In this document: one piece after another, positions 1 to 41,747 of the stretch
Numbering within the stretch: position 1 is the stretch's first letter
Layout: each line of letters starts with the position of its first letter
DNA from: an uncultured delta proteobacterium
Lineage (GTDB): Bacteria; Desulfobacterota; Binatia; UBA9968
Reading direction: 5' to 3'
Length of the DNA: 64,000 nucleotides
Assembly: GCA_963727625.1 (NCBI GenBank)
Contig: CAVSHR010000012.1
Span: 544,001 to 608,000 of the forward strand
Translations under genes and position numbers: made by a program
Notes under the pieces: model-generated
What the model saw: the letters and a program-made list of their open reading frames with translations, nothing else
What the model was told of the DNA's origin: nothing
Database searches by the model: none

Positions 1-330
1 CAAGGTAATGGGCTTTGTCTGGTAGCCGTCGAAGCCCTCGGCGAGCATGGCTTGCCGGTTGTTCGTCATCGCCGATGCGGTAATAGCGACAATCGGGATG
101 CTCTGCGTCTTGGGATCGGACTTGAGCTGCTTCATCGCCGTGATGCCGTCCATACCGGGAAGCTGGATGTCCATGAGGATCAGCGCCGGAGATTGGCTCC
201 GCGCCAACTCAAGCCCGTCCTCCGCAGCTTCGCTCTCGATGGTCTTGTACCCCTTCACCTGCAGCACGTCGCGGCAGAGCTTGCGGTTCTTCTCGTTGTC
301 CTCGATAATCAAAATTAGTTCGTTAGCCAT
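1..330 (-). CDS. Single-domain response regulator (DivK/CheY-like), 3' end beyond window
   Basis: Not in ORF track. Hand translation MANELILIIEDNEKNRKLCRDVLQVKGY...ILMDIQLPGMDG...IVAITASAM...YQTKPI shows the receiver acidic pocket, phospho-Asp, Thr and KP motif. Confidence 0.92.
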   Translation of the reverse strand, partial: MANELILIIEDNEKNRKLCRDVLQVKGYKTIESEAAEDGLELARSQSPALILMDIQLPGMDGITAMKQLKSDPKTQSIPIVAITASAMTNNRQAMLAEGFDGYQTKPITL

Positions 331-347
331 AGGACTTCCGATTTTTC

Positions 348-376
348 CTCTCGCAAAGGCGCTAAGGCGCAAAGTT
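348..376. repeat. Left arm of 29-bp inverted repeat (CGCaAAG family) abutting the GxxExxY stop codon
   Basis: ctctcgcaaaggcgctaaggcgcaaagtt; 26/29 identical to the reverse complement of 764..792. Confidence 0.9.
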
Positions 377-763
377 TTAGGAATCCTCGATTCCGTTCAC
401 CGCGCGGGTTATACCTCGTTTCATCAACGCTTCACCAAAGTTTAGCGGAAATCCCAGCTTGTAACCGGTTAACCGCAGATATGTCAGAAGCTGTTTCTTG
501 TGAGCTTGGCTGACTTGCTCAACAGATTTTAACTCTATGATAACCTTGTCTTCGACAACTAAATCAGCGCGAAACGCCTCTTCGAAAGTCATCTCCTTGT
601 AATGGATCGAAATCGGAACTTGCCGTATCACCGAAAGCCCACGTTGTCCTAATTCGTAGGCCAGAATGACTTCATATACGCTTTCCAGCAACCTCGGCCC
701 AAGCTCCCGATGTACCGCAACAGCCACATCGATAATAATTGTCCCAATTTCATTCTCTGTCAT
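377..763 (-). CDS. GxxExxY family protein (PD-(D/E)XK-like)
   Basis: VHRELGPRLLESVYE, RADLVVEDKVIIELKSVE, QLLTYLRLT, LNFG; the motif Gly is replaced by Arg. Confidence 0.9.
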   Translation of the reverse strand: MTENEIGTIIIDVAVAVHRELGPRLLESVYEVILAYELGQRGLSVIRQVPISIHYKEMTFEEAFRADLVVEDKVIIELKSVEQVSQAHKKQLLTYLRLTGYKLGFPLNFGEALMKRGITRAVNGIEDS

Positions 764-801
764 AACTTGGCGTCTTTGCGCCTTTGCGAGAGAATATTCT
801 T
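764..801. repeat. Right arm of the inverted repeat abutting the GxxExxY start codon
   Basis: aacttggcgtctttgcgcctttgcgagagaatattctt; same length and same agaatattctt tail as 13158..13195. Confidence 0.9.
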
Positions 802-3800
802 ATCCGATCGGCAGAGTGAATGTGAACGTGCTGCCTTTGCCGACTTCGCTTTCCACCCAGATCTTGCCGCCGTGCAGTTCGACGAACCGTTTAGTCAATG
901 CCAAGCCCAGCCCTGTGCCTTCGCGCTTTTGCGCGTAATTCGATCCGACTTGCCGAAATTCTTCGAAGATCGCTTCCTGGTCTTCCTTGGCGATGCCTAT
1001 TCCGGTATCCGTCACCGAAATAATCGCCGCGCTGTCCCCCACTCTCGCCTCGACTTTGACATCTCCTCCCTCCGGCGTGAACTTTACCGCGTTGGTCAAA
1101 AGGTTGACGAGGATTTGTTTGATCTTGCGCTCGTCGCCAGTGAAATCGCCGAGCCGATCGTCGATCACGCGATCGAGTTTGATCCCATGCCGGCTGGCCC
1201 GCTCACGGATGAGCAAGAGCGCGTTCTCGATCGTATCTGGCAGGTGAAACGTCGTGATCTCCAACTCCATCCGCCCCGCTTCGACCTTGGAAAGATCGAG
1301 GATGTCGTTGATAAGCGAGAGCAGATGGCGCCCGGAAGTTAGAATATCGTCGGTGTATTCGGCTTGTTTTTCGTTCAACTCGCCAAAGAGTTTTTCCTGC
1401 AAGACCTCGGAAAAACCGATGATGGCGTTGAGCGGCGTGCGCAGTTCGTGCGACATGTTGGCGAGAAATTCCGACTTGTGCTGGCTGGCGGCTGCGAGTT
1501 GCTTGCCCTTCTCTTCGATCTCGCGGAACAGCCGCGCGTTGTGGATCGCCAAGGCCGACTGCGTCGCGAAGGTTTGCATCAGGTTCACCACCTCTGGATC
1601 GAACTCTCCGACCTGGCGGCGCCACACCGTCAACCCGCCCATAATTTGCTGCTCGCGCAGGATCGGCACCGTCAAAAGCGAGCGGTATCCGAGGCGGTTC
1701 AGCAACGGTCTCAACCTCGAAGTCGAGCGCTCTTGCTGATCAAAAGTATCGGGGATCTGCACCGGCGCGCGAGTGATCGCCGCTTGCCCCGTGGCGCCCT
1801 CGCCGGCCCTTATCCGAGCTGCTCTAAGCGCCTCGACCGCTTCGCTTTCCATATTGTGGCTCGCCCGCAAATTGAACTCTTGCGCCGCTTCATCATATTC
1901 GTAAATAACCCCGCAATCGGTGCCCGACAGTTCGACCGCCCGCGCGACGATGGTTTCCAGCACCGTTTCAAGATCGAGCGTCGAACTCACCGCTTGGCCG
2001 ACCTCGCTCAGCGCTTTCATCTCCTCGACGGATTCGACCAACTCGCGCGTGCGTTCTTGCAATTCCTTGAACAGCCGCACATTTTCGATAGCGATCACAG
2101 CCTGGTCGGCGAAGGTTTTCAGAAGAGCGATCTGTTTTTCGCTGAATGGCTGAACCTCTCGGCGGTAGATCGTGACCGCTCCGATCAGCATGCTCTCTCG
2201 GAGCATGGGCACATGTAGGGTTGTACGCGCACCTCCAAGCTCTACCGCTGCAACCGTGCCGGGTTGACGCTCCTGATACGCTCTCTCGATTGATATGTCA
2301 GGGATATGAATCGGGCTTCGCTGATGTATGAGTTGTCCAAGCCCCGAACTCGGGCCGGGCCTAATTGGACCCTGCCTCAAGAATTCGTTATAGGCCGGAG
2401 TTGCCCCAACAAGGCCCACAGGTTTGAATTCCTCAGCTTCATATAGGAATAGGAGACCCAAATCCGCATTGCACAGCCGTGTGGCATTGATGAGGATCGT
2501 TTGAAAGACCGGCTCAAGGTTGGTGGGTGAACTACTGATCACGCGCAGGATCTCGCTGGTCGCTGTCTGCTGCTCCAGCGCCTCGGTGATTTGGCGATTG
2601 CGTTCTTCTAATTCTTTGAACAGCCGCACGTTTTCGATGGCGATCACGGCCTGTGATGCGAAGGTCTTGAGAAGTGCGATCTGTTTCTCGGTAAACGGCC
2701 GCACCTCCATCCGGCGAGTTCCAATCACGCCGATTGCGACACTCTCGCGGAGCAACGGGGTGGCAAGCAGGGTTCGATAACCCAACCGGGTTCCCCGGCT
2801 TTCCGGATAATCCGCCGCGACCTCTTGGAAGTCGCGAATGTGAATCGTTTCGCAATCGACAATCGCTCGCCCCTGGTGCGAGTTGCGATTGAGCGGCGTC
2901 TCCGTCCCAAGCGGGCTGCTCGGAGCCGATCCATGGTTGGCGACCTTCCGCAGGCGATCGCCTTCAACCCGCATAAAAATCGCCGCATCCGTCGCCTCAC
3001 AAACCCGCGCCGCGTTCTCGGCCACAGTGTCCAACACCGGCTGAATATCAGTCGGCGAGCTGGCAATGACGCCCAAGATTTCACTGGTCGCCGTCTGCTG
3101 CTCAAGCGACTCCTTCAACTCTTGGAACAACCGCACGTTCTCGATGGCGATAACCGCTTGGTCGGCGAAAGTCTTTAGAAGACTGATTTGCTTGTCAGTG
3201 AATGGATTGACCTCCCCGCGGCGGATGTGAATCACCCCGATTGGTACGCCTTCCCGCAGCAGTGGCGTGGCAAGCGCGGTACCCGCCCCAATTAGGCCGC
3301 GGATACTTGGGAATTCAGTCACGGCTGCAGCGACGTCCTGCACATGAACGGTCTGCCGCTCGATCACCGCTCGCCCGGTGATTGAGCCGTGGTCTACCAG
3401 GCGCTCTGAACCAATTGGCCGTGCCGGCAGTGAACCGCAGTTGGCGACAAGCCTGAGAGAGCTTCCGTCTAGACGCCAGACCAGCGCGTCTTCTGCTCCA
3501 CAAACTCGCAGCGCGTTTTTAGCCACAGTGTCGAGCACCGGCTGGATGTTTGTCGGTGAATTGGCAATGACACCCAAGATTTCGCTCATCGCCGTCTGCT
3601 GTTCCAAAGACTCTTTGAGTTCTTGAAACAGCCGCACGTTCTCGATCGCGATCACAGCTTGATCGGCGAAAGTTTCGAGCAGCTTGATTTGCGCCGGGGT
3701 AAACGGGCGCACCTCGGTGCGCCGTGAGATCAGGAGTCCAATTAGGTCCCCATGTAGGCGAAGAGGAACAGCCAAAAACACGCGCTTCGGCCCCGGAACT

Positions 3801-6800
3801 GCCAATGGGATATCGTTTTGCGTGCGAATATCTGGGATATGAAGCGTGCCATGCTCCCGGACCCAGCGAGCCGGTGGTGAATCAATAGTGATCTCGATAC
3901 CGGGTACGGGTACGGAGCCATAATGAGCCCGGGGGACCAAAGCGTCGCCCTCGCGTAACCGCAGCACCGTATCATCGATCCCACACACGCGCGCCGCGCT
4001 CTCGACGATAGCATCAAGCACCGGCTGCACGTCCGTCGGCGAGCGGCTGATGATGCCGAGCACCTCGGATGTCGCCGTCTGGTGCTCCAGCGCTTCCCTA
4101 AGATCTGCGTTACGCTCCTGAATTTCTTTGAACAGCCGGACGTTTTCAATGGCAATTACAGCCTGGGCCGCAAAGGTTTCGAGCAGTTTAATTTGTCGAT
4201 CAGAAAATGGACGAACCTCGGTTCGCCTGATGTTAATCAAGCCTATAGGTGTACCCTCTCTGAGCATCGGCGTGCTTAAGAATGTCCGTGCTCCCGAGGA
4301 CCCTGCCATATCAGGAAATTCACTCTTCACGGCTTCGACGATATCGTTCACTAGGATCGTTTTTCCGGTAAGAATTGCTCGGCCTGCAGGGTGTCCTAAG
4401 GTCGTGCGCACAAACTCGGGCGCTGGTGCAGGTCCGAAGGATGCCACCCGTCGATGGCCGTCTCCCTCGACCAGACGAATCTGCGCGTCCGTTGCCTCAC
4501 AAAGTCGGGCGGCATTCTCTGCGACGACATCCAACACCGGCTGAATATCAGTCGGCGAGCTGGCGATAACGCCTAAAATCTCGCTCGTCGCAGTCTGCTG
4601 CTCCAACGATTCCTTTAGCTCTTGGAACAGCCGCACGTTTTCGATCGCGATGACCGCCTGGTCAGCGAAGGTTTCAAGAAGTTTGATCTGCGCTGGGGTG
4701 AAGGGACGCACCTCAATGCGCCGTGCAACCAGGACTCCAATGAGTTCCCCATGTAGGCGAAGGGGAACGGACAAAAACACGCGTTTCGGCCCCGGAACTA
4801 AAAATGGGATATCGCTTTTCGTGCGAATATCAGGGATGTGAAGCGTGCCATGCTCCCGGACCCATCGGGCCGGTGGGGAATCAATAGTGATCTCGATACC
4901 GGGTACGGGTACGGAACCATAATGGGCCCGGGAGATCAAAGCGTTCCCCTCGCGTAACCGCAGCATCGTATCATCTATCCCACAAACCCGCGCGGCGCTC
5001 TCGACGATGGCGTCGAGCACCGGCTGCACGTCCGTCGGCGAACGGCTGATGATGCCGAGCACTTCAGATGTCGCGGTCTGATGCTCCAGGGCTTCGCGAA
5101 GTTCGGCGTTACGATCCCCAAGCTCACGGAACAAGCGCACGTTCTCGATGGCGATGACCGCTTGATCGGCGAAGGTCTTTAGAAGAGCTATCTGCTTCTC
5201 GGTGAAAGGCCGGACCTCCGTGCGGCGAATACCGATCGCGCCAATCGCCACACCTTCGCGCAGCAGCGGTGTGCCGAGCATGGTGTGAATACCTCGCTGC
5301 TTTGCGCGATCTTGTTCCTCTGGATATTCGCCGGGAAGCGCGACAATGTCGACAACATGAATCGTCTGGCCGTCGGCAACCGCTCGTCCGTTCAACGAGT
5401 CGCGCGAGAGAGGCGTTTCAAATCCAATCGGACTCCCCGGAACCGACCCGTAGGTGGCGACCTTTCGAAGGCGAGAACTGTCCACGATCATGAAGATATT
5501 GGCGTCATTCGCTCCACAAATTTGCGCCGCATTTCTAGCGACGGTGTCCAGGACCGGCTGAATATCCGTCGGCGAACTGGCGATGACGCCTAAAATCTCG
5601 CTCGTCGCTGTCTGCTGCTCCAACGACTCCTTGAGCTCGTTGAACAACCGTACGTTCTCGATGGCGATCACCGCTTGATCAGCGAAGGTTTTGAGGAGAT
5701 CTATCTGTTTCTCGGTGAATGGATTGACCACCGTACGACGCATAAAGATCACACCAATTGCCATCCCTTCGCGCTGCAGCGGCGCGGCAAGCACCGTTCG
5801 AATGCCGCCTCGTTCGGTGCTGGCTTGAGACTCGGGGAACTCGGTTGCGTTCAGAGCCATCAAATCGTCAATGTGAACGACCCGGCGATCAATCACGGCA
5901 CGCCCGACTACTGAACGACGGTCGATTGGCCGGGGTGAAACGTCAGGCTCGAATGGCCCGTAATGCGCACGCATGGCTAAGACGTCGCCTTCAATGAGTC
6001 GAATAACCGCATCATCCGCACCGCATACTCGCGCCGCGCTGGCTGCTACTTCGTCCAAGACCGGCTGAATATCCGTCGGCGAACTGGTGATGACGCGTAG
6101 AATCTCGCCCGTCGCGGTCTGTTGCTCTAAGGCCTCGGTCAAATCGCGGTTGCGTTCCTGCAATTCTTTGAACAGCCGCACGTTCTCGATGGCGATGACA
6201 GCCTGGTCGGCGAAGGTTTTCAGCAAGGCAATCTGCTTGTCGGAAAAGGGGCGGACCTCCAAGCGTCGGATCAAAATCGCGCCGATCGGCGCGCCCTCGC
6301 GCAGCAGCGGCGTCGCCAGGGTCGTGCGGTGACCCGTCTGTTGCTGGTAACCCTTGATTTCCGGATATTCGCCGTCAACTTCCGCGGCCAGATCGTGGAC
6401 GTGAATGGTTTGACGGTCGATCATCGCCCGAGCCGCGGGAGATTGGCGGTTCATAGGTATATGGCCCGCCGGTATTAGCGGTCCGTAGGATGCCGCCCGG
6501 TGCGCGAGATCGTTCTCAAGGCGAAAAATCTGCGCATCGAATGACTCGCACAGCCGCGCCGCGCTTTCCGCAACGGCGTCGAGCACCGGCTGCACATCGG
6601 TGGGTGAGCGGCTGATGATGCCGAGCACCTCGGCCGTCGCTGTCTGATGCTCCAGCGCCTCGCGCAACTCCGCGTTACGGTCACCGAGTTCTTTGAACAA
6701 GCGCACGTTTTCTATGGCGATAACGGCTTGATCGGCGAAGATCTTGACGAGCGCGATTTGCTTCTCCGAAAATGGACGCACTTCCTTGCGTCGGACAATG

Positions 6801-7804
6801 ATCACCCCGATCGGATCGCCTGCGCGCAATAAAGGCACGCCAAGCACACTTCGAATGCCTATGGTCACCGGTCCCAGGGAAAAATCCACTTCGGGCGCTT
6901 GCACGTCAGGAACATGGATAGTCTGGCGGTCGAGCACGACGCGGCCGGAAAGGTTGCGCCGATCCGCGATCGATTCCTCGCCGATACGCGCCGTCGGAAT
7001 CAGACCGGTCGAGGCCGCGCGTCTGATGATATTCCCGGTAACCCGGTGAATAGTCGCTTCGTCGGCATCACACAATCGCCTGGCATTTTCGACGACAGCA
7101 TCCAGCACCGGCTGAATATCCGTCGGCGAACTGGCGATGACGCTTAAAATCTCGCTCGTCGCCGTCTGTTGCTCCAATGATTCCTTCAGCTCGTTGAACA
7201 GCCGCACGTTCTCGATGGCGATGACCGCTTCGTCGGCAAAACTCTCGAGCAGTTTTATTTGTTTGTCTGTGAAAGGGCGGACTTCCGTGCGCCGGATGTT
7301 AATCACACCGAGAGGCACACCGTCGCACATAAGCGGCGTGGCAAGCGCGGTTCTAATGCCGGTAGCATTTTGGACAGTCCGGTATTCTGGAAACTCCGTT
7401 TCAATTTCTTCCGCGATGTCATGTATGTGAACCGTTTCCCGATCGATGACAGCTCGGCCCACCGGAGTCCCGCGAGTAATGCTCCGCATTCCAATGGCTG
7501 TCGTCGGCATTGACCCATATACCGCCATACGTTGCTGAACATCACCCTCAACGCGAAAAATCAGAGCATCGGCAGCATCACACAACCGAGCAGCATTTTC
7601 CGCAATCGTATCCATCACGGACTGAAGGTCGGTTGGCGTGCGTGCGATCACGCGCAGGATCTCACTCATTGCCGCGCGCTGCTCCTCACCGTCGCGAATT
7701 TCTTGCGCTTGCGCGGCGATGGTCTTCTTCAGCTTCGAGATCGAATTCGCCGGGGACGCCGCGCGCGGTTTTGATTTGGTGGTCTTTGAGATCTTCTTAG
7801 CCAT
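800..7804 (-). CDS. Cytoplasmic sensor histidine kinase with 12 tandem GAF domains, HisKA and HATPase
   Basis: 11 [11 protein letters not shown] plus one [13 protein letters not shown] end; H-box [15 protein letters not shown]-box [21 protein letters not shown]; start taken at MAKKISK. Confidence 0.95.
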
Positions 7805-7841
7805 TCGGACACATAAGACTAAACCAGCTATATACAATGTA

Positions 7842-8006
7842 AAAATCCGAAATCCGAATATCGAAATCGGAAATAAAGCAGAGCCAAATAAACCTCAAAT
7901 CCAGAAAATCCAAAACGCTGCCTTCTAACCTTCCCGTTTGGAGCATCGTCGTCGCTTTGTTTTTCATCATTTTGAATTTGTTGCGGATTTCGAGTTTCGG
8001 ATTTGA
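7842..8006. repeat. Inverted pair of CGAAAT(C/T)-heptamer repeat arms around a short spacer
   Basis: aaatccgaaatccgaatatcgaaatcggaaata ... tttgttgcggatttcgagtttcggattt. Confidence 0.75.
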
Positions 8007-8262
8007 CTTCACTCAGGGTTCTAGAAAACCTTCCGGCGGAGCGGAATAAAGGTCGGATGTCACATTGGTCACACCCGGCACACTTTTTACTAGCCTTACG
8101 ACTTTGTCTTCCAAGCCACGATCGACTCTGCCCTTGACGTAAATGTGGCCACCTTCGGCGCGAACTTCGAGTGCCAATCCTCCTACGTTGGGCGCTGCAA
8201 ATAACATGGCATGGACCCGAGACCCAAGCGCGAAGTCATGGAAAGCCTGGTTGGACTCGGGA

Positions 8263-8887
8263 GTGAATAACCACCGCCTTAAAGGCGGTGGCATCGAATA
8301 ACGGACTGAAAGTCCTGGGTTCCGGCTACAAGCCGGCTTAAAGTTCCCGCCCCCAATGGGCGGCTGTAGACGGTCTTAACCGTCTACTTTGAAATCATCG
8401 TCACGATCATGATTCTGATTCGATATATATTCCGCGATCACCTCGTCGGTCACATTCCCGCTACTGCAGCAGAAGTATCCCCGTGCCCACAGATGCCGAC
8501 CCCAAAACTGCTTCTGCAAATGCGGAAATTCTCCCATCAACTTGTACGAACTCTTCCCCTTCAACCATTGGATCAACCGACTGATTGTCACTTGCGGCGG
8601 TATCGACACGAACAGATGCAGATGGTCCTTCGCCACATGTCCCTTCAGGATCGTTACTTCGTGTTGCCCGCAGATCTCACGGATTATGTCTCTTACTCGC
8701 GTCGCCACTTCCCCCGTCAACGCTGCCCGATGGTATTTGGTCGTCCATACCAGATGCAAATGTATCTCGAATACCGTGTGTGCTCCGCGTCGATACTCCT
8801 TCATCCGCACACACTACCACAGTGTCACAAAAACTTGCTAAAGCCGTCGCCTAAAGGCGAGGGCTTCAACCCTCCCAGAGTGGGACA
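8263..8887 (-). mobile_element. IS200/IS605-family element, tnpA only (625 bp), inserted 3' of TCAC
   Basis: Subterminal hairpins at 8841..8866 and 8271..8291; TCAC at both cleavage sites on the minus strand; splits the host ORF cleanly. Confidence 0.9.
8376..8804 (-). CDS. tnpA: IS200/IS605 Y1 (HUH) transposase
   Basis: HLVWTTKY, DHLHLF (HUH), LKGKSS, LWARGYF, YISNQ. Confidence 0.95.
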   Translation of the reverse strand: MKEYRRGAHTVFEIHLHLVWTTKYHRAALTGEVATRVRDIIREICGQHEVTILKGHVAKDHLHLFVSIPPQVTISRLIQWLKGKSSYKLMGEFPHLQKQFWGRHLWARGYFCCSSGNVTDEVIAEYISNQNHDRDDDFKVDG

Positions 8888-9529
8888 GTGAGCTGATACT
8901 CTTCGAGCTTCGCGGCCTCCAGAATCAGATGTTTCGCCCCTTCTCGGCGCATCGTGCTCATATTGAGAATCAGATCATAACGACTAGGATCGCGCCAATC
9001 CGCGCCAAACATCGCCATAAGCCGGCGACTGCGGGCTTTATCGACCTCTTCTATATAGTGGCGCGCCGCGACGTCAGTCAGATTTTGTCGTGACCGGACT
9101 TGTCCAATGCGAAATTCGATTGGCGCAGTTAAAAGTACCTTCAGCACGTGGCCGATACCGGCCAAAAGCTCATGACCCACATGGCCGTGGTAAATCAACT
9201 TTCCGTCATGGGCCAGCTCGCACAGCGCGGCTTGGAGAGCTATCCGGTAGGGCCGCAGATCGAGCAGGAGACGCTCCCACCAGTGCGGGCCTTTTTCGAG
9301 GATCTCGTTGAGTTTTGCTTGGGGAATACCATAGCGACGGCTCGCTTCCACGAGCAACTCGCGCCCAACGCAACGATAACCGAGAGCTTGGGCCACAGTC
9401 CCGGCCAATTCCTGACCTTCGCCGGAAGCACCCTGATAGATTGTGATGATCGGCATGCCAGCTACTCTCCTAACCTCTAAAAGCTACCAACCTCCCCGCG
9501 TGAAAATCTGAAACAAACCCACAGATGCT

Positions 9530-9694
9530 AAATCCGAAATTCGAAGCACGAAATCCGAAACAAACTAAAATCAACTGAATCCTAAATTCAAATATCAAAA
9601 CTCGATCTGGTCGATAACGCTTGGCACATTCTAATTGTTTTGTATTTCATGTTTTGAAATTGTTTCGGATTTCGAAATTCGTGCTTCGAAATTT
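9530..9694. repeat. Second inverted pair of CGAAAT(C/T)-heptamer arms
   Basis: aaatccgaaattcgaagcacgaaatccgaaacaa ... ttgtttcggatttcgaaattcgtgcttcgaaattt. Confidence 0.8.
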
Positions 9695-9719
9695 TCCCGA
9701 GTTGCTTACCTTTCACCCC

Positions 9720-11798
<2,079 letters not shown>

Positions 11799-11986
11799 AG
11801 AAAAAGACCGGGATGAGAAAAAGCCGCGGGCGCACGAAAGCAAGGAAGAGGTGCAATTGTGGCGTTATGAGAGGCGCGCTCGGGGGTTGAGTTTCTTTTA
11901 CGCCAGTCGGTTGCCGGGCGTCAAGGAATGGTTTCGGAGGTTGTGAGGCGTCAAAGGTTAGGGGTTAGGCAAGCCGGAAAACATCA

Positions 11987-12075
11987 CTCGCGCAAAGAGT
12001 GCTAAGGACGTTAAGGAAACACGATTTACAGGTACGGTGGCTGCTCCTTTGCGACCTTCGCCTACTTCGGGCGCG
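11987..12075. repeat. Degenerate empty inverted pair of the CGCaAAG family
   Basis: ctcgcgcaaagagtgctaaggacgttaagg ... cctttgcgaccttcgcctacttcgggcgcg. Confidence 0.6.
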
Positions 12076-12101
12076 GACATTTATATCTGGAGAGGTTGAT
12101 T

Positions 12102-12130
12102 CCCCCGCAAAGGCGCAAAGACGCCAAGTT
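12102..12130. repeat. Left arm of CGCaAAG inverted repeat upstream of the TA module
   Basis: cccccgcaaaggcgcaaagacgccaagtt; 27/29 identical to the reverse complement of 764..792. Confidence 0.88.
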
Positions 12131-12237
12131 AACAAAGCCCACGGAACAAAGAACTTATTTCATTAGACTCGGAGTCGAGTCTGATGAGCTCTGCAGATCG
12201 GCAGTGGCGCTTCCGATAATCATGATAAAAGGAACCG

Positions 12238-12474
12238 ATGGTTCAGCGGTCCCGTTCACTCCCTGCGCGCCCAAAACATTCTTTTTTTCTCTGGGGGCCG
12301 CGGCAAACCAGGAAAACTACTCTGCTCTGGTCGGTTTACCCAAGCGCTCATTGGGTCGATCTGCTCGACACCGATACCCTACTTTGCACCTTGGCGACTT
12401 TGCGGGAGAAAATCCGAATCCTAGAGAAAAAATTCTCGTGCAAAGATGCAGGGTATATGGACCGCGAGGTTTGA
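12238..12474 (+). pseudogene. N-terminal remnant of an AAA+ ATPase (DUF4143-associated type)
   Basis: SFFLWGPRQTRKTTLL is a degenerate Walker A (GPRQTGKTTL), followed by WVDLLD; similarity is then lost. Confidence 0.7.
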
Positions 12475-12508
12475 CTGCTCCGGACAGATGGACTAACCTT
12501 AGTCCACT

Positions 12509-12748
12509 ATGACTAAGGTGAATATCCATCAGGCGAAGACACAATTTTCCCGGCTGGTCGACCTGGCCGCGAGCGGAGAGGAAATTGTTATCGCAAAATC
12601 TGGTAAACCCGTGGCTCGGTTAGTCCCCTACAAGCAGAAAGGCGCAGTGCGCCGGCCGGGAAGCCTGCGCGGCAAGATTCGGATCAAGAGAAATTTCGAC
12701 GAAACACTTCCGAAAGAGCTGTTGGCTTCGTTCGAAGGAAAGTCGTAA
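12509..12748 (+). CDS. Phd/YefM family antitoxin
   Basis: VNIHQAKTQFSRLVDLAASGEEIVIAKSGKPVARLVP. Confidence 0.93.
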   Translation: MTKVNIHQAKTQFSRLVDLAASGEEIVIAKSGKPVARLVPYKQKGAVRRPGSLRGKIRIKRNFDETLPKELLASFEGKS

Positions 12749-12751
12749 GCG

Positions 12752-13147
12752 GTGCGCGTGCTGCTCGACACTCACGTCCTCCTCTGGTGGTTCTCCGACG
12801 ACCGCAAGCTTGCGAAGGACGCGCGGGCTATCATTGCCAATCCCGACAACGACGTGCTCGTGAGCGCGGCGTCGGCTTGGGAAATATCGATCAAAGCGGC
12901 GCTAGGTCGGCTCGAAATTGAATTGGATGACCTGGAAGATGCAATCTTAAAAAACGGTTTTCGGCCGCTACCGATCGGGTTGCGCCATGCCGTAACTGCC
13001 GGTCGTCTGCCCAATATACACCGTGATCCCTTCGATCGGATGCTCGTTGCTCAGGCCAGTATCGAGGAACTGCGAGTGGTTTCTCACGACCGGGTGTTCG
13101 AGCGTTACGGACTCAAGGATGGGGGATTGCCACCGATCATAGTGTGA
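12752..13147 (+). CDS. vapC: VapC/PIN-domain toxin
   Basis: LLDTHVLLW, SAASAWEISIK, HRDPFDRMLVAQA. Confidence 0.93.
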   Translation: MRVLLDTHVLLWWFSDDRKLAKDARAIIANPDNDVLVSAASAWEISIKAALGRLEIELDDLEDAILKNGFRPLPIGLRHAVTAGRLPNIHRDPFDRMLVAQASIEELRVVSHDRVFERYGLKDGGLPPIIV

Positions 13148-13157
13148 ATCGTACCGA

Positions 13158-13241
13158 AACTTTGCGCCTTGGCGTCTTCGCGGCAGAATATTCTTTTCCC
13201 GGATTCAGATGATCTCCCGCCAGGGCGCAAAGACGCCAAGG
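13158..13241. repeat. Right arm closing the TA segment, followed by a further left arm
   Basis: aactttgcgccttggcgtcttcgcggcagaatattctt (13158..13195) then ctcccgccagggcgcaaagacgccaagg (about 13214..13241). Confidence 0.85.
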
Positions 13242-13424
13242 TAGGAATTAACCCAAAACCGACAATAAAAACGGAAGTCCATCATCCTGAATGAATCAAT
13301 GCGTGAGCAGTTCAAAACTTCACTGATTGTGAGCAACTCGATGGACCGGAGAATTGTTAAAATACCAATGGTAAAGTTCCATGCAATTGCCAAATTATTG
13401 TCGGTTTAGGGTTAACGATTTCTT

Positions 13425-14537
13425 TTAGTGATGTGCGGCCTGTTCGTCCAAAGACAGATTGACGTAATGGTGTGACTTCGAGACCGCGCCGATGCCTTTG
13501 ACGATTGTCTGCCAGTGCTCGCCCTCATCCTCGCTGTAAAAAACATCGCCGTCGGTGGTGCCGGCGAAAATCGCATAACCGCCATTCCACACATCCATCG
13601 CCATGCCTTCGATGTTGGCGCGGATGTGTTCCGGTAGTCCCCCGGTCAAAATATCCCAACTCTTGCCGCCGTCGCGGCTGCGCGCGATGCGCGCGTCGGC
13701 GGTGTGGAGCTTTCGCCACGTGCCTGGACCGGTCTTGGCGCCGGCGACGTAAAGCAAATTCGGATCGCCGGGATGAACGAAGAACGGATCGACGTAGCCG
13801 ATACGGAAATCGCGCGGCGTCATGCTCTGCCAAGTTGCGCCGCCGTCGCTGCTGACGCAGAATCCCGCCGGCGTTTCCGGCCCGCAGTTGGTCGTCGGCG
13901 CGGTGCCGTAAAGCTTGCTCGGATCGTTGGTGGGAATTAATACGCGGTGGGCGTCGGGGTTGATGCTATCGATGGTCGTCCAGGATTTGCCGCCGTCGGT
14001 GCTGCGCAAAAAACCGCCGACTTCGACGGCGACGTGAATGATGTTTGGATCTTTCGGATGGAAAGTGATGCTCTTCGCGTGCGCCTGATGCGGCGGGCCG
14101 GGGAAGGTCCATTTTTCCACCCCCGGCACCTGGCGCAACCCCGGCAACTCGGTCCAACTCTTGCCGAGATCGTCGCTGTAAAACAAGTGCGCCGGCTGGG
14201 TGCCGGCGTAGACGCGCGGCTTGCCGTTTACAACTTGAGTGGCCAGCGAATAAATCTCCTTGTCGCCGATGCCGTTATCGCGCCGCTCCCAGGTCTTGCC
14301 GAGATCCGAACTGGCGTAAATCTCACAACTATAGGTTCCGCCGAACAACGTCTTGGTCGTGGGCTCGAAGATAATCGAGCTGAAATGTTTTCCCGGGACC
14401 ATGGTTCCCTGGCCCTCCCAGGAGCCGTTGCGTTTTTGAAATGCGAAGATGCCGCCGACGGTACCGACGAGCAATTTATCTTTTGCAGTCTCGCCCTGAG
14501 TGAGCGACTGCCCTCCGGGGGACAAACATATAAACAT
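13425..14537 (-). CDS. BNR/Asp-box repeat beta-propeller protein
   Basis: Six S-x-D-x-G-x-(T/S/H)-W Asp-boxes. Confidence 0.88.
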   Translation of the reverse strand: MFICLSPGGQSLTQGETAKDKLLVGTVGGIFAFQKRNGSWEGQGTMVPGKHFSSIIFEPTTKTLFGGTYSCEIYASSDLGKTWERRDNGIGDKEIYSLATQVVNGKPRVYAGTQPAHLFYSDDLGKSWTELPGLRQVPGVEKWTFPGPPHQAHAKSITFHPKDPNIIHVAVEVGGFLRSTDGGKSWTTIDSINPDAHRVLIPTNDPSKLYGTAPTTNCGPETPAGFCVSSDGGATWQSMTPRDFRIGYVDPFFVHPGDPNLLYVAGAKTGPGTWRKLHTADARIARSRDGGKSWDILTGGLPEHIRANIEGMAMDVWNGGYAIFAGTTDGDVFYSEDEGEHWQTIVKGIGAVSKSHHYVNLSLDEQAAHH

Positions 14538-14786
14538 GGCCTCGCCTCCTTTCCTGGTTAAAAACGCCCGTGTTTCTTTGATGAAGTCCTTCGATACTGC
14601 GCTGGAGGATTACTCTACTTAACCATTGACTGGCTCGTCAAGATGGTCGCGGGTGACTCTGATTTTGTCGACCCGCCGGCGGTGAGCCTGGGGGGGACGT
14701 TCGTTGTTGCGGGAACCTTTCTCGCCGGGCTCCGTCTAATCCAGCCAAGTGTGCATCATACGCGGTAACGGAGCGTAATCCCGGCG

Positions 14787-15683
14787 ATGTCAAAGCTCGC
14801 TTCACATAGTTTCTTACAGCCTTTTCCCCAAGATCCGCGCTACTACCAGATCGCCGTCCTATCCTCGCTGGTGATCTTCAGCGTCGGCTGGCTCGGCTTC
14901 GACGCGAATGGTTGGCAAATCTTTATTCTGTTGATTTCGGCGCTGCTCGCCCAATTTGCCTGCACCGCGCTGACGGGCGCAAAAAAGTTCGATCCCAAGA
15001 GTCCGCTGATTTCCGGTCTTTCGCTTTGCTTGTTGCTGCGGGCCAACCATCCCTTGCTGCTGATGATAACGGCCATCGTGACCATCGGCAGTAAATTCAT
15101 TTTCCAGTGCAACGGCAAGCATCTTTTCAATCCGACCAATTTCGGCATCGTCGTCATGCTCGCCCTCGGCGCCGACGTTTGGGTTTCTCCGGGGCAATGG
15201 GGCAGTAAATTTTATTTTGCTTTCCTCCTGGCCTGCCTGGGCGGCATGGTGATCCATCGCGCCCTGCGCAGCGACGTGAGCTATGCCTTTCTGTTTTTTT
15301 TCAGCGCGATCTTGTTCGGCAGAGCCTGGTGGCTCGGCGATCCCTGGACGATTCCGCTCAAACAGCTGCAAAGCGGCGCCCTGCTTCTCTTCACGTTTTT
15401 TATGATTTCCGACCCCAAAACCACGCCCGATTCGCGCGCCGGGAGAATTCTGTTCGCCTCGCTCGTCGCCGCCGGCGCCGCCTACGTGCAGTTCGGCCTG
15501 TTCCACACCAACGGCCTGCTCTGGTCGCTGGCGCTTTGTTCGCTGGCAACGCCGCTGCTCGACTTCTTTCTGCCCGGAACAAAATATCGGTGGAGTGTGT
15601 CTGAGCCATCGTTGACGGCAAAAGGAGATGCTCATGAAGAAGATCGTTTTATCGCTCACCCTGCTGTTCGCCCTGTCGGTTAA
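14787..15683 (+). CDS. NqrB/RnfD-family membrane protein
   Basis: GKHLFNPTNFG, FFMISDPKTTP, many hydrophobic segments. Confidence 0.8.
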   Translation: MSKLASHSFLQPFPQDPRYYQIAVLSSLVIFSVGWLGFDANGWQIFILLISALLAQFACTALTGAKKFDPKSPLISGLSLCLLLRANHPLLLMITAIVTIGSKFIFQCNGKHLFNPTNFGIVVMLALGADVWVSPGQWGSKFYFAFLLACLGGMVIHRALRSDVSYAFLFFFSAILFGRAWWLGDPWTIPLKQLQSGALLLFTFFMISDPKTTPDSRAGRILFASLVAAGAAYVQFGLFHTNGLLWSLALCSLATPLLDFFLPGTKYRWSVSEPSLTAKGDAHEEDRFIAHPAVRPVG

Positions 15684-29778: not shown

Positions 29779-30747
29779 ATGAATTTTGCAATTCTTCGCC
29801 GGCCCCGAACTCAAGCCCTTCTCGACGGCACCGTAAAGCCGGCCGGGCTCTCCGCCCGATGGCTGGCCGTGTCCGACCCGCTGGGCTGGGCGCTGCCGCC
29901 GCACGAGAAACACCGGGATCTCGCCTCGGGCGAGTTGGACGGCGGCGAGATGAGCATCTCATCGTTTGTCCAGGCGAAATCTCGAGGCGCGCCGCTGGTG
30001 GCGTTGCCGATCTTTTTGAAACGCGGCCTGGTGCAGCGGAGTCTTGCTTGTCCCGTAGGCTCCCCGCTGACTTCCCCCGATCAACTGGTTGGCAAAAGAG
30101 TGGGATTGGTGAGTTACACTTCCAGCATGGCAGTATGGATGCGCGGGATTTTAAGCGACGGCTATGGATTCGATTGCTCGAGCGTCCAGTGGTTTACCGT
30201 CAGCGGCTCGTCCGATGCTGCCCAGTCTCTGAATATCCCGGATGAATTTTCGGAGGAAGGGATACAGGCCTGGGAGGAATTGGACGGTTATCCTCACGCA
30301 CTGGACCGCCGGGAGACCTTCCTCCTCTCGCTGCTGAACCAAGGGGCGCTGGACGCTGTCGTTTCTTTCCAGGCCAGGATCGACTGCGAGCGGATGAGGC
30401 CGCTGTTGCATGAGGACAGCCTGTGGTCCCATCCGCTAAATTCACAAATTTACCCGATCAATCACCTCTTCGTGGTCAAAACAGACGTCGTCCACAAGTC
30501 CCCGGCCATCACTGCGTCATTGTTGTCCACCTTTAGGGAAGCGCGCGGATTGTGGAAGAATTATCAGTCGCTGGGCGAGCGGCAGGGATTCGAGAGAGAA
30601 ACGGCGAAGTTGGGTTATGATCCCTTCGCGTATCGTTTGGGCGAAGTGGAGAAGACAACCTTGGAAACGTTCGTCGGTTATCTGGAGAGAGAGAAATTGA
30701 TTTCCCGCAAGCCCGGATTAAACGAACTTTTTTACGACGGGTTTTGA
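29779..30747 (+). CDS. 4,5-dihydroxyphthalate decarboxylase-like / PBP2-fold protein
   Basis: TQALLDGTV, EMSISSF, ALPIF, VWMRGIL, IYPINHLFVV. Confidence 0.75.
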   Translation: MNFAILRRPRTQALLDGTVKPAGLSARWLAVSDPLGWALPPHEKHRDLASGELDGGEMSISSFVQAKSRGAPLVALPIFLKRGLVQRSLACPVGSPLTSPDQLVGKRVGLVSYTSSMAVWMRGILSDGYGFDCSSVQWFTVSGSSDAAQSLNIPDEFSEEGIQAWEELDGYPHALDRRETFLLSLLNQGALDAVVSFQARIDCERMRPLLHEDSLWSHPLNSQIYPINHLFVVKTDVVHKSPAITASLLSTFREARGLWKNYQSLGERQGFERETAKLGYDPFAYRLGEVEKTTLETFVGYLEREKLISRKPGLNELFYDGF

Positions 30748-32299: not shown

Positions 32300-32410
32300 G
32301 GTTGATCATCATTGCGCGGTTCCTGGCTTGAGGACATGATTATCCTTTTTGATTTTTCCATGCCTGAAGTCGGTGACCGTTCCGGCAAAAAATCGAGATA
32401 TAGATTCTGC
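32300..32410. repeat. Intergenic element, copy 1 (copy 2 at about 38882..38990)
   Basis: Shared ggttgatcatca, acatgatt, tttttccatgcctga and ggtgac-gttccg blocks in the same order. Confidence 0.7.
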
Positions 32411-32896
32411 TGAAAAGTCTTTTTCCAAAAATCAGAAAAAAAGATTTCGCACACAGATGCCGTATAACGAACCATCGGAGCTTAGTGAATCATTTTTGAC
32501 GTCCCAAATTTTCCGAGAAAGGGGGTTTTTCAGCAAAATCAATCAGAGTCCCCAGCTTTTCCCCAATCGGCAAATATTCCGATCAAACTGAACCGAGACT
32601 GCGTCAATGATTTCTCTGCCCTTTACCTTGACTTTAACTTTACCGCTTTGATATGCGTGTGATTAGAACAACAAATTGTTCCTTTCACTGCTGCACCTAA
32701 AGGGCTGTTGCTTTCCCCCGTCGCCCGACGCACATGAACTTGTTTGCGAGTAACGCCCTTGCCCAACAGGAGGCGTGCTTGTTTCTTTCGCATACAACGT
32801 TCGGATTCATTTTACGTCTTACATCAATCTTTCTTGGAGTTGAGTTTTTGTCGGCGGTTTTGGGTTGATCCTAATTTCTTACCAAGGAGGTGCTGA

Positions 32897-36736: not shown

Positions 36737-36970
36737 GCGGCTCCTTCTCGGATCGTCCAACGAACCCAACCTTTGAATATCCCCGATGAATTCTCGGAGG
36801 AAAGAATCCAGGCCTGGGAGGAATTGGACGGCTATCCACACGCCTTGGACCATCGGGAGGCTTTCCTCTTGTCGCAATTGAGTCAAGGGGCGCTGGATGG
36901 GGCCGTTTCTTTCCAGGCCAGCATCGATTTCGAGCGGACAAGGGCGCTGTTGCATGAGGACAGCTTGTGA
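36736..36970 (+). pseudogene. Internal fragment of a paralog of 29779..30747
   Basis: NIPDEFSEERIQAWEELDGYPHALD...LLHEDSL matches about 30202..30425 with many synonymous changes. Confidence 0.85.
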
Positions 36971-37103
36971 TCACAACCGCGGGTTGATGCGATTGTTAGA
37001 CCAGATCCCGCAACCGCTGATAGTTCCTCAATGTTGCGGCGCAAGACCCCGATTCTTTCTTTCGCGCCAATCCCTGCGCGCCGGACAGAACTTCGGAACA
37101 TAT

Positions 37104-38881: not shown

Positions 38882-38990
38882 GGTTGATCATCAATGCGGT
38901 TCCCGCCCGAAAACATGATTTTCGTTTTTGTTTTTTCCATGCCTGAGGCTGGTGACTGTTCCGACAGAAAGTCGGGATGTAAAAGTCAGA
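38882..38990. repeat. Intergenic element, copy 2
   Basis: Colinear similarity to 32300..32410. Confidence 0.7.
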
Positions 38991-39083: not shown

Positions 39084-39317
39084 TCACTTCCGTTCAAGGA
39101 CGTGAATATAGAGATCGGTCGTGCCTTCTTTTTCCGTGCGCTGCTCTTTGAGGATGGCGGTTTTGCTGCTCTGCGCCCAACCTTTGAAGTCCGGCATCGA
39201 GCCAGGGTCGGTCGAAATCACCTCCAGCAGTTCGCCGGGCTGCATCAGGTCGACTTCTTTTTTGGCTTTTACAATCGGGATGGGGCATTTGGCGCCCCGG
39301 ACGTCCAGCTTTTTCAT
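39084..39317 (-). CDS. tusA: TusA/SirA sulfurtransferase, duplicate copy
   Basis: LDVRGAKCPIP, TDPGS; 72/77 aa identical to 41514..41747; no SD upstream. Confidence 0.8.
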   Translation of the reverse strand: MKKLDVRGAKCPIPIVKAKKEVDLMQPGELLEVISTDPGSMPDFKGWAQSSKTAILKEQRTEKEGTTDLYIHVLERK

Positions 39318-41513: not shown

Positions 41514-41747
41514 TCACTTGCGTTCGAGAACGTGAATATAGAGATCCGCGGCGCCTTCTTTTTCTGTGCGCTGCTCTTTGAGGATGGCGGTCTTGCTGGT
41601 CTGGGCCCAACCTTTGAAATCCGGCATGGAACCTGGATCGGTGGAGGTTACTTCGAGGAGTTCGCCGGGCTGCATTTGGTCGACTTCCTTTTTCGCCTTC
41701 ACGATCGGGATGGGGCACTTCGCGCCTCTGACGTCCAGTTTTTTCAT
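41514..41747 (-). CDS. tusA: TusA/SirA sulfurtransferase
   Basis: CPxP motif, AGGAGG RBS, last gene of the sulfur operon. Confidence 0.92.
   Translation of the reverse strand: MKKLDVRGAKCPIPIVKAKKEVDQMQPGELLEVTSTDPGSMPDFKGWAQTSKTAILKEQRTEKEGAADLYIHVLERK

Follow-up and report, generated by a model that had tools for sequence, protein, structure and literature searches.

We analysed a 64-kb stretch of DNA from an uncultured delta proteobacterium (the window, meaning the whole stretch at its full length), in which a short repeat, here called the arm, flanks a gene for a GxxExxY nuclease and recurs in an array around a Phd/VapC toxin-antitoxin (TA) pair. An arm is ~28 nt long and consists of ~5 conserved bases, a pyrimidine-rich foot with the consensus TYTCA, followed by three tandem octamers CGCNAAGN; arms elsewhere have the foot and then three or more such octamers. 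A hidden Markov model (HMM) trained on 195 arms, all from other genomes, found six significant copies in the window (E = 2e-8 to 8e-5), on both strands and in two clusters only, and the next-best match had E = 0.19. The pattern CGCNAAGNCGCNAAG, allowing at most one mismatch, matched 14 times as compared to 1.06 expected and 4 in the largest shuffle. Three tandem copies of CRCNRAGN, allowing at most two mismatches, matched 7 times in the window and not at all in each of 20 shuffles; the seventh match is a two-mismatch occurrence within a kinase gene.

The first cluster encloses the GxxExxY gene (377-763, minus strand), which encodes a 128-residue member of the PD-(D/E)XK nuclease family PF13366/TIGR04256. 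The protein matches PF13366 with E = 3e-39 and 134 bits (cut-off 22) and TIGR04256 with E = 2.7e-39 and 134 bits (cut-off 35). Its start and stop codons are each at most 2 nt away from an arm. The plus-strand arm at 348-376 (CGCAAAGG CGCTAAGG CGCAAAG; HMM E = 4e-8) stands immediately 3' of the stop codon and is, over 29 nt, 90% complementary to 764-792. The minus-strand arm at 764-801 (HMM match 764-794, E = 2.1e-8) carries a AGAATATTCTT tail and lies 2 nt upstream of the start codon.

Residues E27, D67, E77, K79 and Q91, which include the catalytic E/D/ExK set, are invariant across 15 aligned GxxExxY sequences, and the confident AlphaFold2 model (pLDDT 93) has a minimal PD-(D/E)XK core; on these grounds, the enzyme appears to be active. 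Among solved structures, its fold comes closest to those of the archaeal Holliday-junction resolvase Hjc, Cas4 and lambda exonuclease, with E of ~2e-3 and TM scores of 0.4-0.55. Because all of these matches are weak, we drew no specific functional assignment from them. A sequence search of solved structures returned no GxxExxY relative, and a homodimer prediction scored 0.00, which is no evidence in either direction. The family is very large, with 7,996 of 8,000 scored candidates related at E<=1e-10. More than 100 distinct relatives, some named Candidatus Binatia, are 78-91% identical to the window protein, as would be expected if the family is at present multiplying in this lineage. A tblastn search of a phage collection with the protein gave no match. 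In a 2012 survey of PD-(D/E)XK enzymes, the function of GxxExxY is given as unknown and many horizontal transfers between divisions are described (PMC3424549).

The other four arms lie in 12101-13242, within a 1.6-kb spacer bordered by a GAF histidine kinase gene (9720-11843) and a BNR-repeat gene (13425-14537). The plus-strand arm at 12101-12130 (E = 1.7e-7) is a near-exact inverted copy of 763-795, with 31 of 33 nt complementary (94%). Downstream of it are the first 48 codons of an ATPase gene (12238-12381, plus strand), identified as AAA_14+DUF4143 via full-length relatives. The remnant had 194 matches at E<=1e-3; AAA_14 was found in six of the eight that were scanned, and DUF4143 also in two of those six. 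Pfam on the stump by itself gave nothing useful, and no further piece of the gene was found anywhere in the window. The Walker A motif of the remnant reads GPRQTRKTT, as compared to GPRQTGKT/S in its relatives, a G-to-R change. A minus-strand arm with tail at 12380-12421 (HMM match 12380-12409, E = 7.9e-5; 74% to 764-805) starts exactly at the break of the ATPase reading frame and parts the remnant from Phd/VapC. In the minimum-energy RNA fold, this arm base-pairs with 12101-12130. The idea that the stump is itself part of a repeated element was dropped, its short relatives having no continuation into arm-like sequence.

The antitoxin gene (12509-12748, plus strand) is of the Phd/YefM family (Pfam E = 1.3e-11, TIGR01552 E = 7.3e-9; 44.5 bits for PhdYeFM with a cut-off of 29.8) and the toxin gene (12752-13147, plus strand) encodes a VapC-type PIN domain (Pfam E = 1e-20; 74.9 bits with a cut-off of 23.6). 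Lying 3 nt apart, the adjacent antitoxin and PIN toxin genes appear from their sequences to form a type II Phd/VapC module. A perfect 7+7 palindrome, GGACTAA-CC-TTAGTCC (12481-12496), seen by eye just upstream of phd, is likely the operator of this operon. The stretch at 12430-12460 (plus strand) may be a relic arm or the TA-operon promoter region: it agrees with the arm at ~21 of 36 positions by our own count, the likeness as judged by eye is limited to the tail and first unit, and the HMM does not match it. Located 10 nt past the vapC stop codon is a minus-strand arm at 13158-13199 (HMM match 13158-13187, E = 1.7e-7), which carries the AGAATATTCTT tail and is 81% to the 764-805 family repeat over 42 nt; it is followed by a plus-strand arm at 13213-13242 (E = 1.1e-5) whose convergent partner is gone. 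The arms on the two sides of Phd/VapC (12380-12409 and 13158-13187) are thus both on the minus strand, direct and not inverted. Among the relatives listed, 119 others are 79-90% identical to this VapC. No remnant of GxxExxY was found in 11900-13420 at E<=1 when our own HMM was run on six-frame translations. Separately, directly past the last arm lies a 168-nt element (13248-13415) resembling a miniature inverted-repeat transposable element (MITE), with 21-nt terminal inverted repeats (20 of 21 complementary), a DNA fold z-score of -4.5 and a related arm-like stretch at 32835-32869. The sources of the VapC relatives are named Terriglobales, Deltaproteobacteria, Candidatus Binatia and Candidatus Bathyarchaeia, so that the module is unusually widely shared.

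The array at 11987-13242 can therefore be written as L'R'? / L [ATPase remnant] R / [Phd-VapC] R / L. This agrees in part with an earlier note on this DNA. One repeat family with copies in series is present as the note described; its left arm at 12102-12130, right arm at 13158-13195 (with the same tail as at 764-801) and further left arm were all recovered, and its figure of 27/29 for the left arm fits a comparison with the reverse complement of 764-792. The cargo, named there as an AAA-ATPase remnant plus TA pair, was also recognised correctly. The proposed layout L-R-L-[cargo]-R-L did not survive, having missed the minus-strand arm at 12380-12409, which splits the cargo into two compartments. 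Nor did the degenerate empty pair at 11987-12075 find good support. The possible decayed arm at 11987-12016 (plus strand; CGCAAAGA-G-TGCTAAGG-A-CGTTAAGG) gave E = 9.2 (HMM match 11987-11997), and the one convergent with it at 12046-12075 (minus strand) gave E = 13 (HMM match 12046-12055). Each is non-significant alone, and the pair scores among 44 matches of such quality in 64 kb; only its location and the convergence of its two halves make it plausible as a relic.

Arms of the same form are found far outside this lineage. A scan of a genome collection with CGCNAAGNCGCNAAGNCGCNAAG gave at least 127 stretches, as compared to ~17 chance matches expected in the whole collection by our own arithmetic. 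After five overlapping loci were dropped, at least 122 non-overlapping loci remained. Among the matches listed, to which the counts from the scan below also refer, these come from at least 15 named phyla, and the largest groups are Pseudomonadota (29), Acidobacteriota (27), Bacteroidota (14), Chloroflexota (11) and Planctomycetota (9). Variants with the octamers CGCAGAG or CACAGAG occur, as do variants with periods of 9-10 nt, and the CGC..AG frame is the part kept everywhere. When three mismatches were allowed, 68 pairs of neighbouring arms were convergent, 18 divergent and 17 on the same strand. Short empty hairpins with loops of 9-147 nt make up 61 of the 68 convergent pairs, and most copies are such hairpins between ordinary genes. 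Arms base-pair in minimum-energy folds. Outside the octamers, paired arms have ~5 bases in common, and inside them none. Of 305 comparisons at free N positions, 191 agree between the two arms of a pair, as compared to 0.40 +/- 0.027 for shuffled partners. Paired arms are thus related, imperfect inverted repeats.

In their short palindromic form, intergenic position and predominance of inverted doublets, the arms resemble the repetitive extragenic palindromic (REP) sequences that pair into hairpins known as REPINs, a likeness that the earlier note had drawn and that the convergent pairs bear out. It is seen again in a Pyrinomonadales contig (L026), in which five copies of a ~165-nt palindromic unit, with 79% mean column identity, lie in spacers of an ATP-binding cassette (ABC) transporter operon. 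In two loci (L003 and L038), arms are nested in one another. These nested-arm clusters (L003 2900-3625 and L038 4020-4480) contain the octamers CACAGAG, CGCAGAG, CGCAAAG and CGCGAAG, and no open reading frame (ORF) there matches any family. Rfam searches of 11 loci gave sub-threshold matches to miRNA hairpin models only, and a search of window positions 1-15000 gave no match at E<=1.

We then asked which genes the arms enclose or adjoin by a Pfam search with 265 ORFs that lie at most 1 kb from an arm. Most are ordinary, with functions in haem, arginine, NADH dehydrogenase and bacteriochlorophyll or as transporters and kinases. PF13366 is the sole family that recurs inside convergent pairs. Seven convergent pairs have loops longer than 200 nt: four contain GxxExxY (L049, L072, L107 and, frameshifted, L106), two contain nested arms only (L003 and L038), and in one (L053) argB is spanned by the arms of two different spacers. 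No Phd/VapC relative was found in the 127 arm-bearing loci, and the one plasmid Phd/VapC relative that was inspected has no arms. TA modules or module-like pairs lie near arms in three (L028, L030 and L075) of 77 ORF-scanned loci, for which we claim no enrichment; in L030 and L075 the arm is on one side only. No Y1 HUH (IS200/IS605-like) transposase was found among the 265 ORFs; PF13366 takes the place of the REP-associated tyrosine transposase (RAYT). These results change the earlier interpretation, which stands in part. Unrelated selfish cargo in the same ends is not supported as a general property of the arms, and the mobiliser acting in trans, which the earlier note left unidentified, has a candidate in the GxxExxY nuclease encoded within the same ends in the window. 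The note had also raised the case that the enclosed genes are a random sample of the genome: the contents of arm pairs are non-random, being GxxExxY, whereas what lies between one hairpin and the next appears to be ordinary housekeeping genes. Two further copies show particular arrangements. In L072, the upstream arm of the gene at 2599-2997 is in frame at the 5' end of GxxExxY (MDRKDAETQR...), so that in some copies translation may extend through the arm. In L023 (699-3853), from an alphaproteobacterial metagenome-assembled genome (MAG), the order hairpin, GxxExxY, hairpin stands directly past a phage terminase large-subunit gene.

Because these loci had been selected by their arms, the test was repeated starting from the protein. 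A tblastn search of 72,556 plasmid records with the window GxxExxY gave eight records, and in four of them (L128, L129, L130 and L131) octamer arms lie at most 130 nt from the gene. The four arm-bearing records are from Sphingomonas parapaucimobilis (between fabD and fabG), Bernardetia, Gemmatirosa (with complete hairpins on both sides) and Bacteroides finegoldii (past radA). In 26.7 kb of plasmid DNA, a strict pattern matched six arms, all beside a GxxExxY gene, as compared to 0.0 in shuffles.

Two comparisons of orthologous sites, read from sequence, point to mobility. A MAG labelled Deltaproteobacteria (L067) has an orthologous junction of histidine kinase and response-regulator genes (HK-RR) with ~80% identity to the window. 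The arm there is identical letter for letter, and a 41-nt loop stands in place of the window's GxxExxY gene; the likeness between this loop and the ORF's 5' end is too weak for us to base a claim on it. Between fabD and fabG, S. parapaucimobilis has arm, gene and arm, whereas S. paeninsulae has a spacer of ~33 nt (own count) without arms. The latter comparison suggests that arms and gene can arrive together. Both sites thus show the presence/absence pattern of a homing gene. Target-site duplications, as left by MITEs, were not found in 70 pairs, in which the lengths of direct repeats equalled those of the shuffled control.

Several known systems share features with the arms. REPINs with their RAYT genes are likewise short palindromic intergenic repeats, mostly inverted doublets forming hairpins, which leave no target duplication and whose non-coding copies far outnumber one associated gene flanked by inverted repeats. 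The gene of the arms, however, encodes a PD-(D/E)XK nuclease (PF13366) and not an IS200/IS605-type HUH tyrosine transposase. As far as is known, REPs are species-specific, whereas the arm motif is the same in at least 15 phyla; the arm is in addition built of tandem octamers, and the GxxExxY gene is multi-copy. Free-standing homing endonuclease genes, among which PD-(D/E)XK enzymes such as I-Ssp6803I exist, are also small nuclease genes wedged between conserved genes (here fabD/fabG, radA and HK/RR) and present or absent at a given site. Unlike them, GxxExxY comes with its own long inverted repeats and its gene-less hairpins proliferate. MITEs of DDE transposons resemble the arms in their terminal inverted repeats, gene-less copies like internal deletions, nesting and high copy number, but the arms have neither target-site duplication nor transposase. 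Intervening sequences (IVS) of 23S rRNA also place a long stem around a small selfish ORF in a transcribed region, and RNase III-type processing may be possible for the arms as well. The arms, in contrast, are not in rRNA, and the S23p-type ORF, the ORF family named in a Coxiella paper, was not found among the 265 ORFs.

We favour, with about even confidence, the reading that a widespread REPIN-like palindromic element, tied to the GxxExxY nuclease, has the arms as its ends, that such ends piled up to give the array and that Phd/VapC is a bystander. The octamers are identical in phyla that share little else, which calls for a conserved reader, and the nuclease is the candidate because it is the sole conserved protein physically tied to them; it may thus be the mobiliser of the arms. 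The element's own gene, when present, would be the ~125-residue GxxExxY nuclease exactly between the arms. The facing arms would form a long stem, and most copies would be gene-less and last as empty intergenic hairpins, standing to the nuclease as REPINs do to RAYT. In the mechanism that we propose, the nuclease would read the octamer arms in duplex, hairpin or cruciform form and introduce a break, through which the unit could be copied either into new sites or into empty hairpins; no target duplication would be left. Arms might also recombine with one another. On this model, 11987-13242 would be an accretion zone in which the ends, four solid arms and up to three relics, collected in one 1.6-kb spacer; one insertion or recombination event would have cut the AAA_14 ATPase gene at codon 48, and the very mobile Phd/VapC module would have landed or become trapped between arms without being their regular cargo. 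The TA pair was probably trapped rather than carried.

Several observations weigh against this reading. The binding or cutting of arms by the nuclease is a step that we infer. The arm-gene link was drawn from loci selected for bearing arms, so that the arm-first counts are biased, and from eight plasmid records, a small sample. Half of these plasmid genes (L132, L133, L134 and L135) have no octamer arms: ~50-nt direct repeats of unrelated sequence flank GxxExxY on a Fusobacteria plasmid (L132) and a Prevotella nigrescens replicon (L133), a different 12-nt inverted repeat is present in L135 and no repeat in L134. The geometry is not uniform either, GxxExxY being found inside pairs and also between or beside complete hairpins (L019, L023 and L028), and one gene (L072:5330-5719) has by eye only two-unit relic arms. 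Arm pairs are imperfectly complementary, with 37% of the N positions differing, and the two arms of one hairpin in L028 use different octamer types; a pure hairpin model is therefore too simple. L028 also holds GxxExxY and a small, weakly MqsA-like gene (E = 3.5e-5, below the Pfam cut-off) in one arm series, which fits accretion but would also fit cargo capture.

The arms may instead be host REP-like elements that serve as transcript stabilisers, processing sites or translation regulators. GxxExxY would then be a free-standing homing gene that targets the hairpins without mobilising them, and the array would be a cluster of host hairpins. This is a serious rival, although we consider it somewhat unlikely. 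Most arms are indeed empty and lie between ordinary genes, often within operons (the ABC operon of L026, arg in L053, nuo in L024 and hemF/hemB in L034), and the HK-RR site in L067 has a hairpin without a gene. By our own reading, the purine runs of the arms (AAGG, GAGG) resemble ribosome-binding sites and abut start codons. However, the empty fabD-fabG state without any arms argues that the arms came with the gene, and base pairing alone would hardly keep one exact motif in at least 15 phyla, because stems that pair can still drift in sequence. The nesting of arms and the near-identity of units present in several copies resemble proliferation, and neither window positions 1-15000 nor the 11 loci matched an Rfam family.

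At the other extreme, the arms could be ends of true cassettes, so that any DNA between two arms, including the ATPase gene and Phd/VapC, is mobilised in trans to give a cassette array. The window offers some grounds for this, as Phd/VapC has an arm on each side and the ATPase remnant is enclosed by two convergent arms that base-pair with each other in the fold; the joint series in L028 adds to them, and a VapC that is so similar in sources from Terriglobales to Bathyarchaeia must move often by some vehicle. The ATPase "cargo", however, is a 48-codon stump cut by an arm, and the arms around Phd/VapC are direct, their convergent partner being a doubtful relic. The absence of Phd/VapC relatives from the arm-bearing loci, the single arm beside the TA modules in L030 and L075 and the recurrence of GxxExxY alone inside convergent pairs all argue in the same direction, and we regard true cassettes as improbable. 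Equally doubtful, in our view, is the broader claim that octamer arms and GxxExxY form a new cross-phylum, nuclease-driven mobile system, which would recognise CGCNAAG arrays and move in trans anything between two arms, Phd/VapC included. Such a system, if real, would parallel RAYT/REPIN with a PD-(D/E)XK enzyme and would capture cassettes in addition. The open-access literature, searched under the names GxxExxY, PF13366, PDDEXK_3, TIGR04256 and IVS protein, contained no paper describing a link between arms and GxxExxY; 15-mers of the arm gave nothing, and 12- to 16-mers gave, as judged from titles and abstracts, unrelated eukaryotic topics only. An integron, or an integrase-less cluster of attC sites (CALIN), is very improbable and the reading is largely refuted. 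The array shares with attC sites the general look of short imperfect palindromes in series beside toxin-antitoxin and other small selfish genes. The integron comparison of the earlier note is not supported: Pfam found no tyrosine recombinase or other integrase, and no transposase, RAYT or reverse transcriptase, in 7 + 58 ORFs of the 64-kb window, and the arms have no GTTRRRY / RYYYAAC core at their ends, the inner ends reading by eye ...AAGTTATG / ...AAGTTAAC. Moreover, arms come as inverted pairs around a gene and not as one site per cassette, and gene orientations are mixed. The Alphaproteobacteria, the group of the Sphingomonas found among the arm loci, are reported to lack integrons.

Other repeats occur in the window. 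A 2345-residue ORF (800-7837, minus strand) carries more than ten ~500-nt repeats, whose families extend into the neighbouring kinase gene (9720-11843, minus strand), which encodes by Pfam a 707-residue GAF / HisKA / HATPase kinase; the ORF may thus encode a giant multi-GAF sensor kinase. A further palindromic spacer element (9530-9693) is built of GAAAT(T/C)CGAA-like units, in which two 44-nt arms, 73% complementary, lie 76 nt apart. Among the transporter genes there are three direct-repeat pairs with 83-85% identity (30221-30436 and 36765-36980; 32334-32402 and 38913-38981; 39084-39317 and 41514-41747).

A fixed DNA partner, an octamer inverted repeat of the same form in at least 15 phyla, would give the GxxExxY family a testable function. 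It would also explain the intergenic hairpins within operons of Acidobacteriota, Bacteroidota, Cyanobacteriota, Planctomycetota, Pseudomonadota and others. For annotation, the arms mark spots where small selfish genes pile up and genes get cut, as with the ATPase gene of the window. If the nuclease mobilises the hairpins, this would be a second, independent origin of the REPIN/RAYT lifestyle with a different enzyme, and could supply a nuclease with specificity for sequence or structure.

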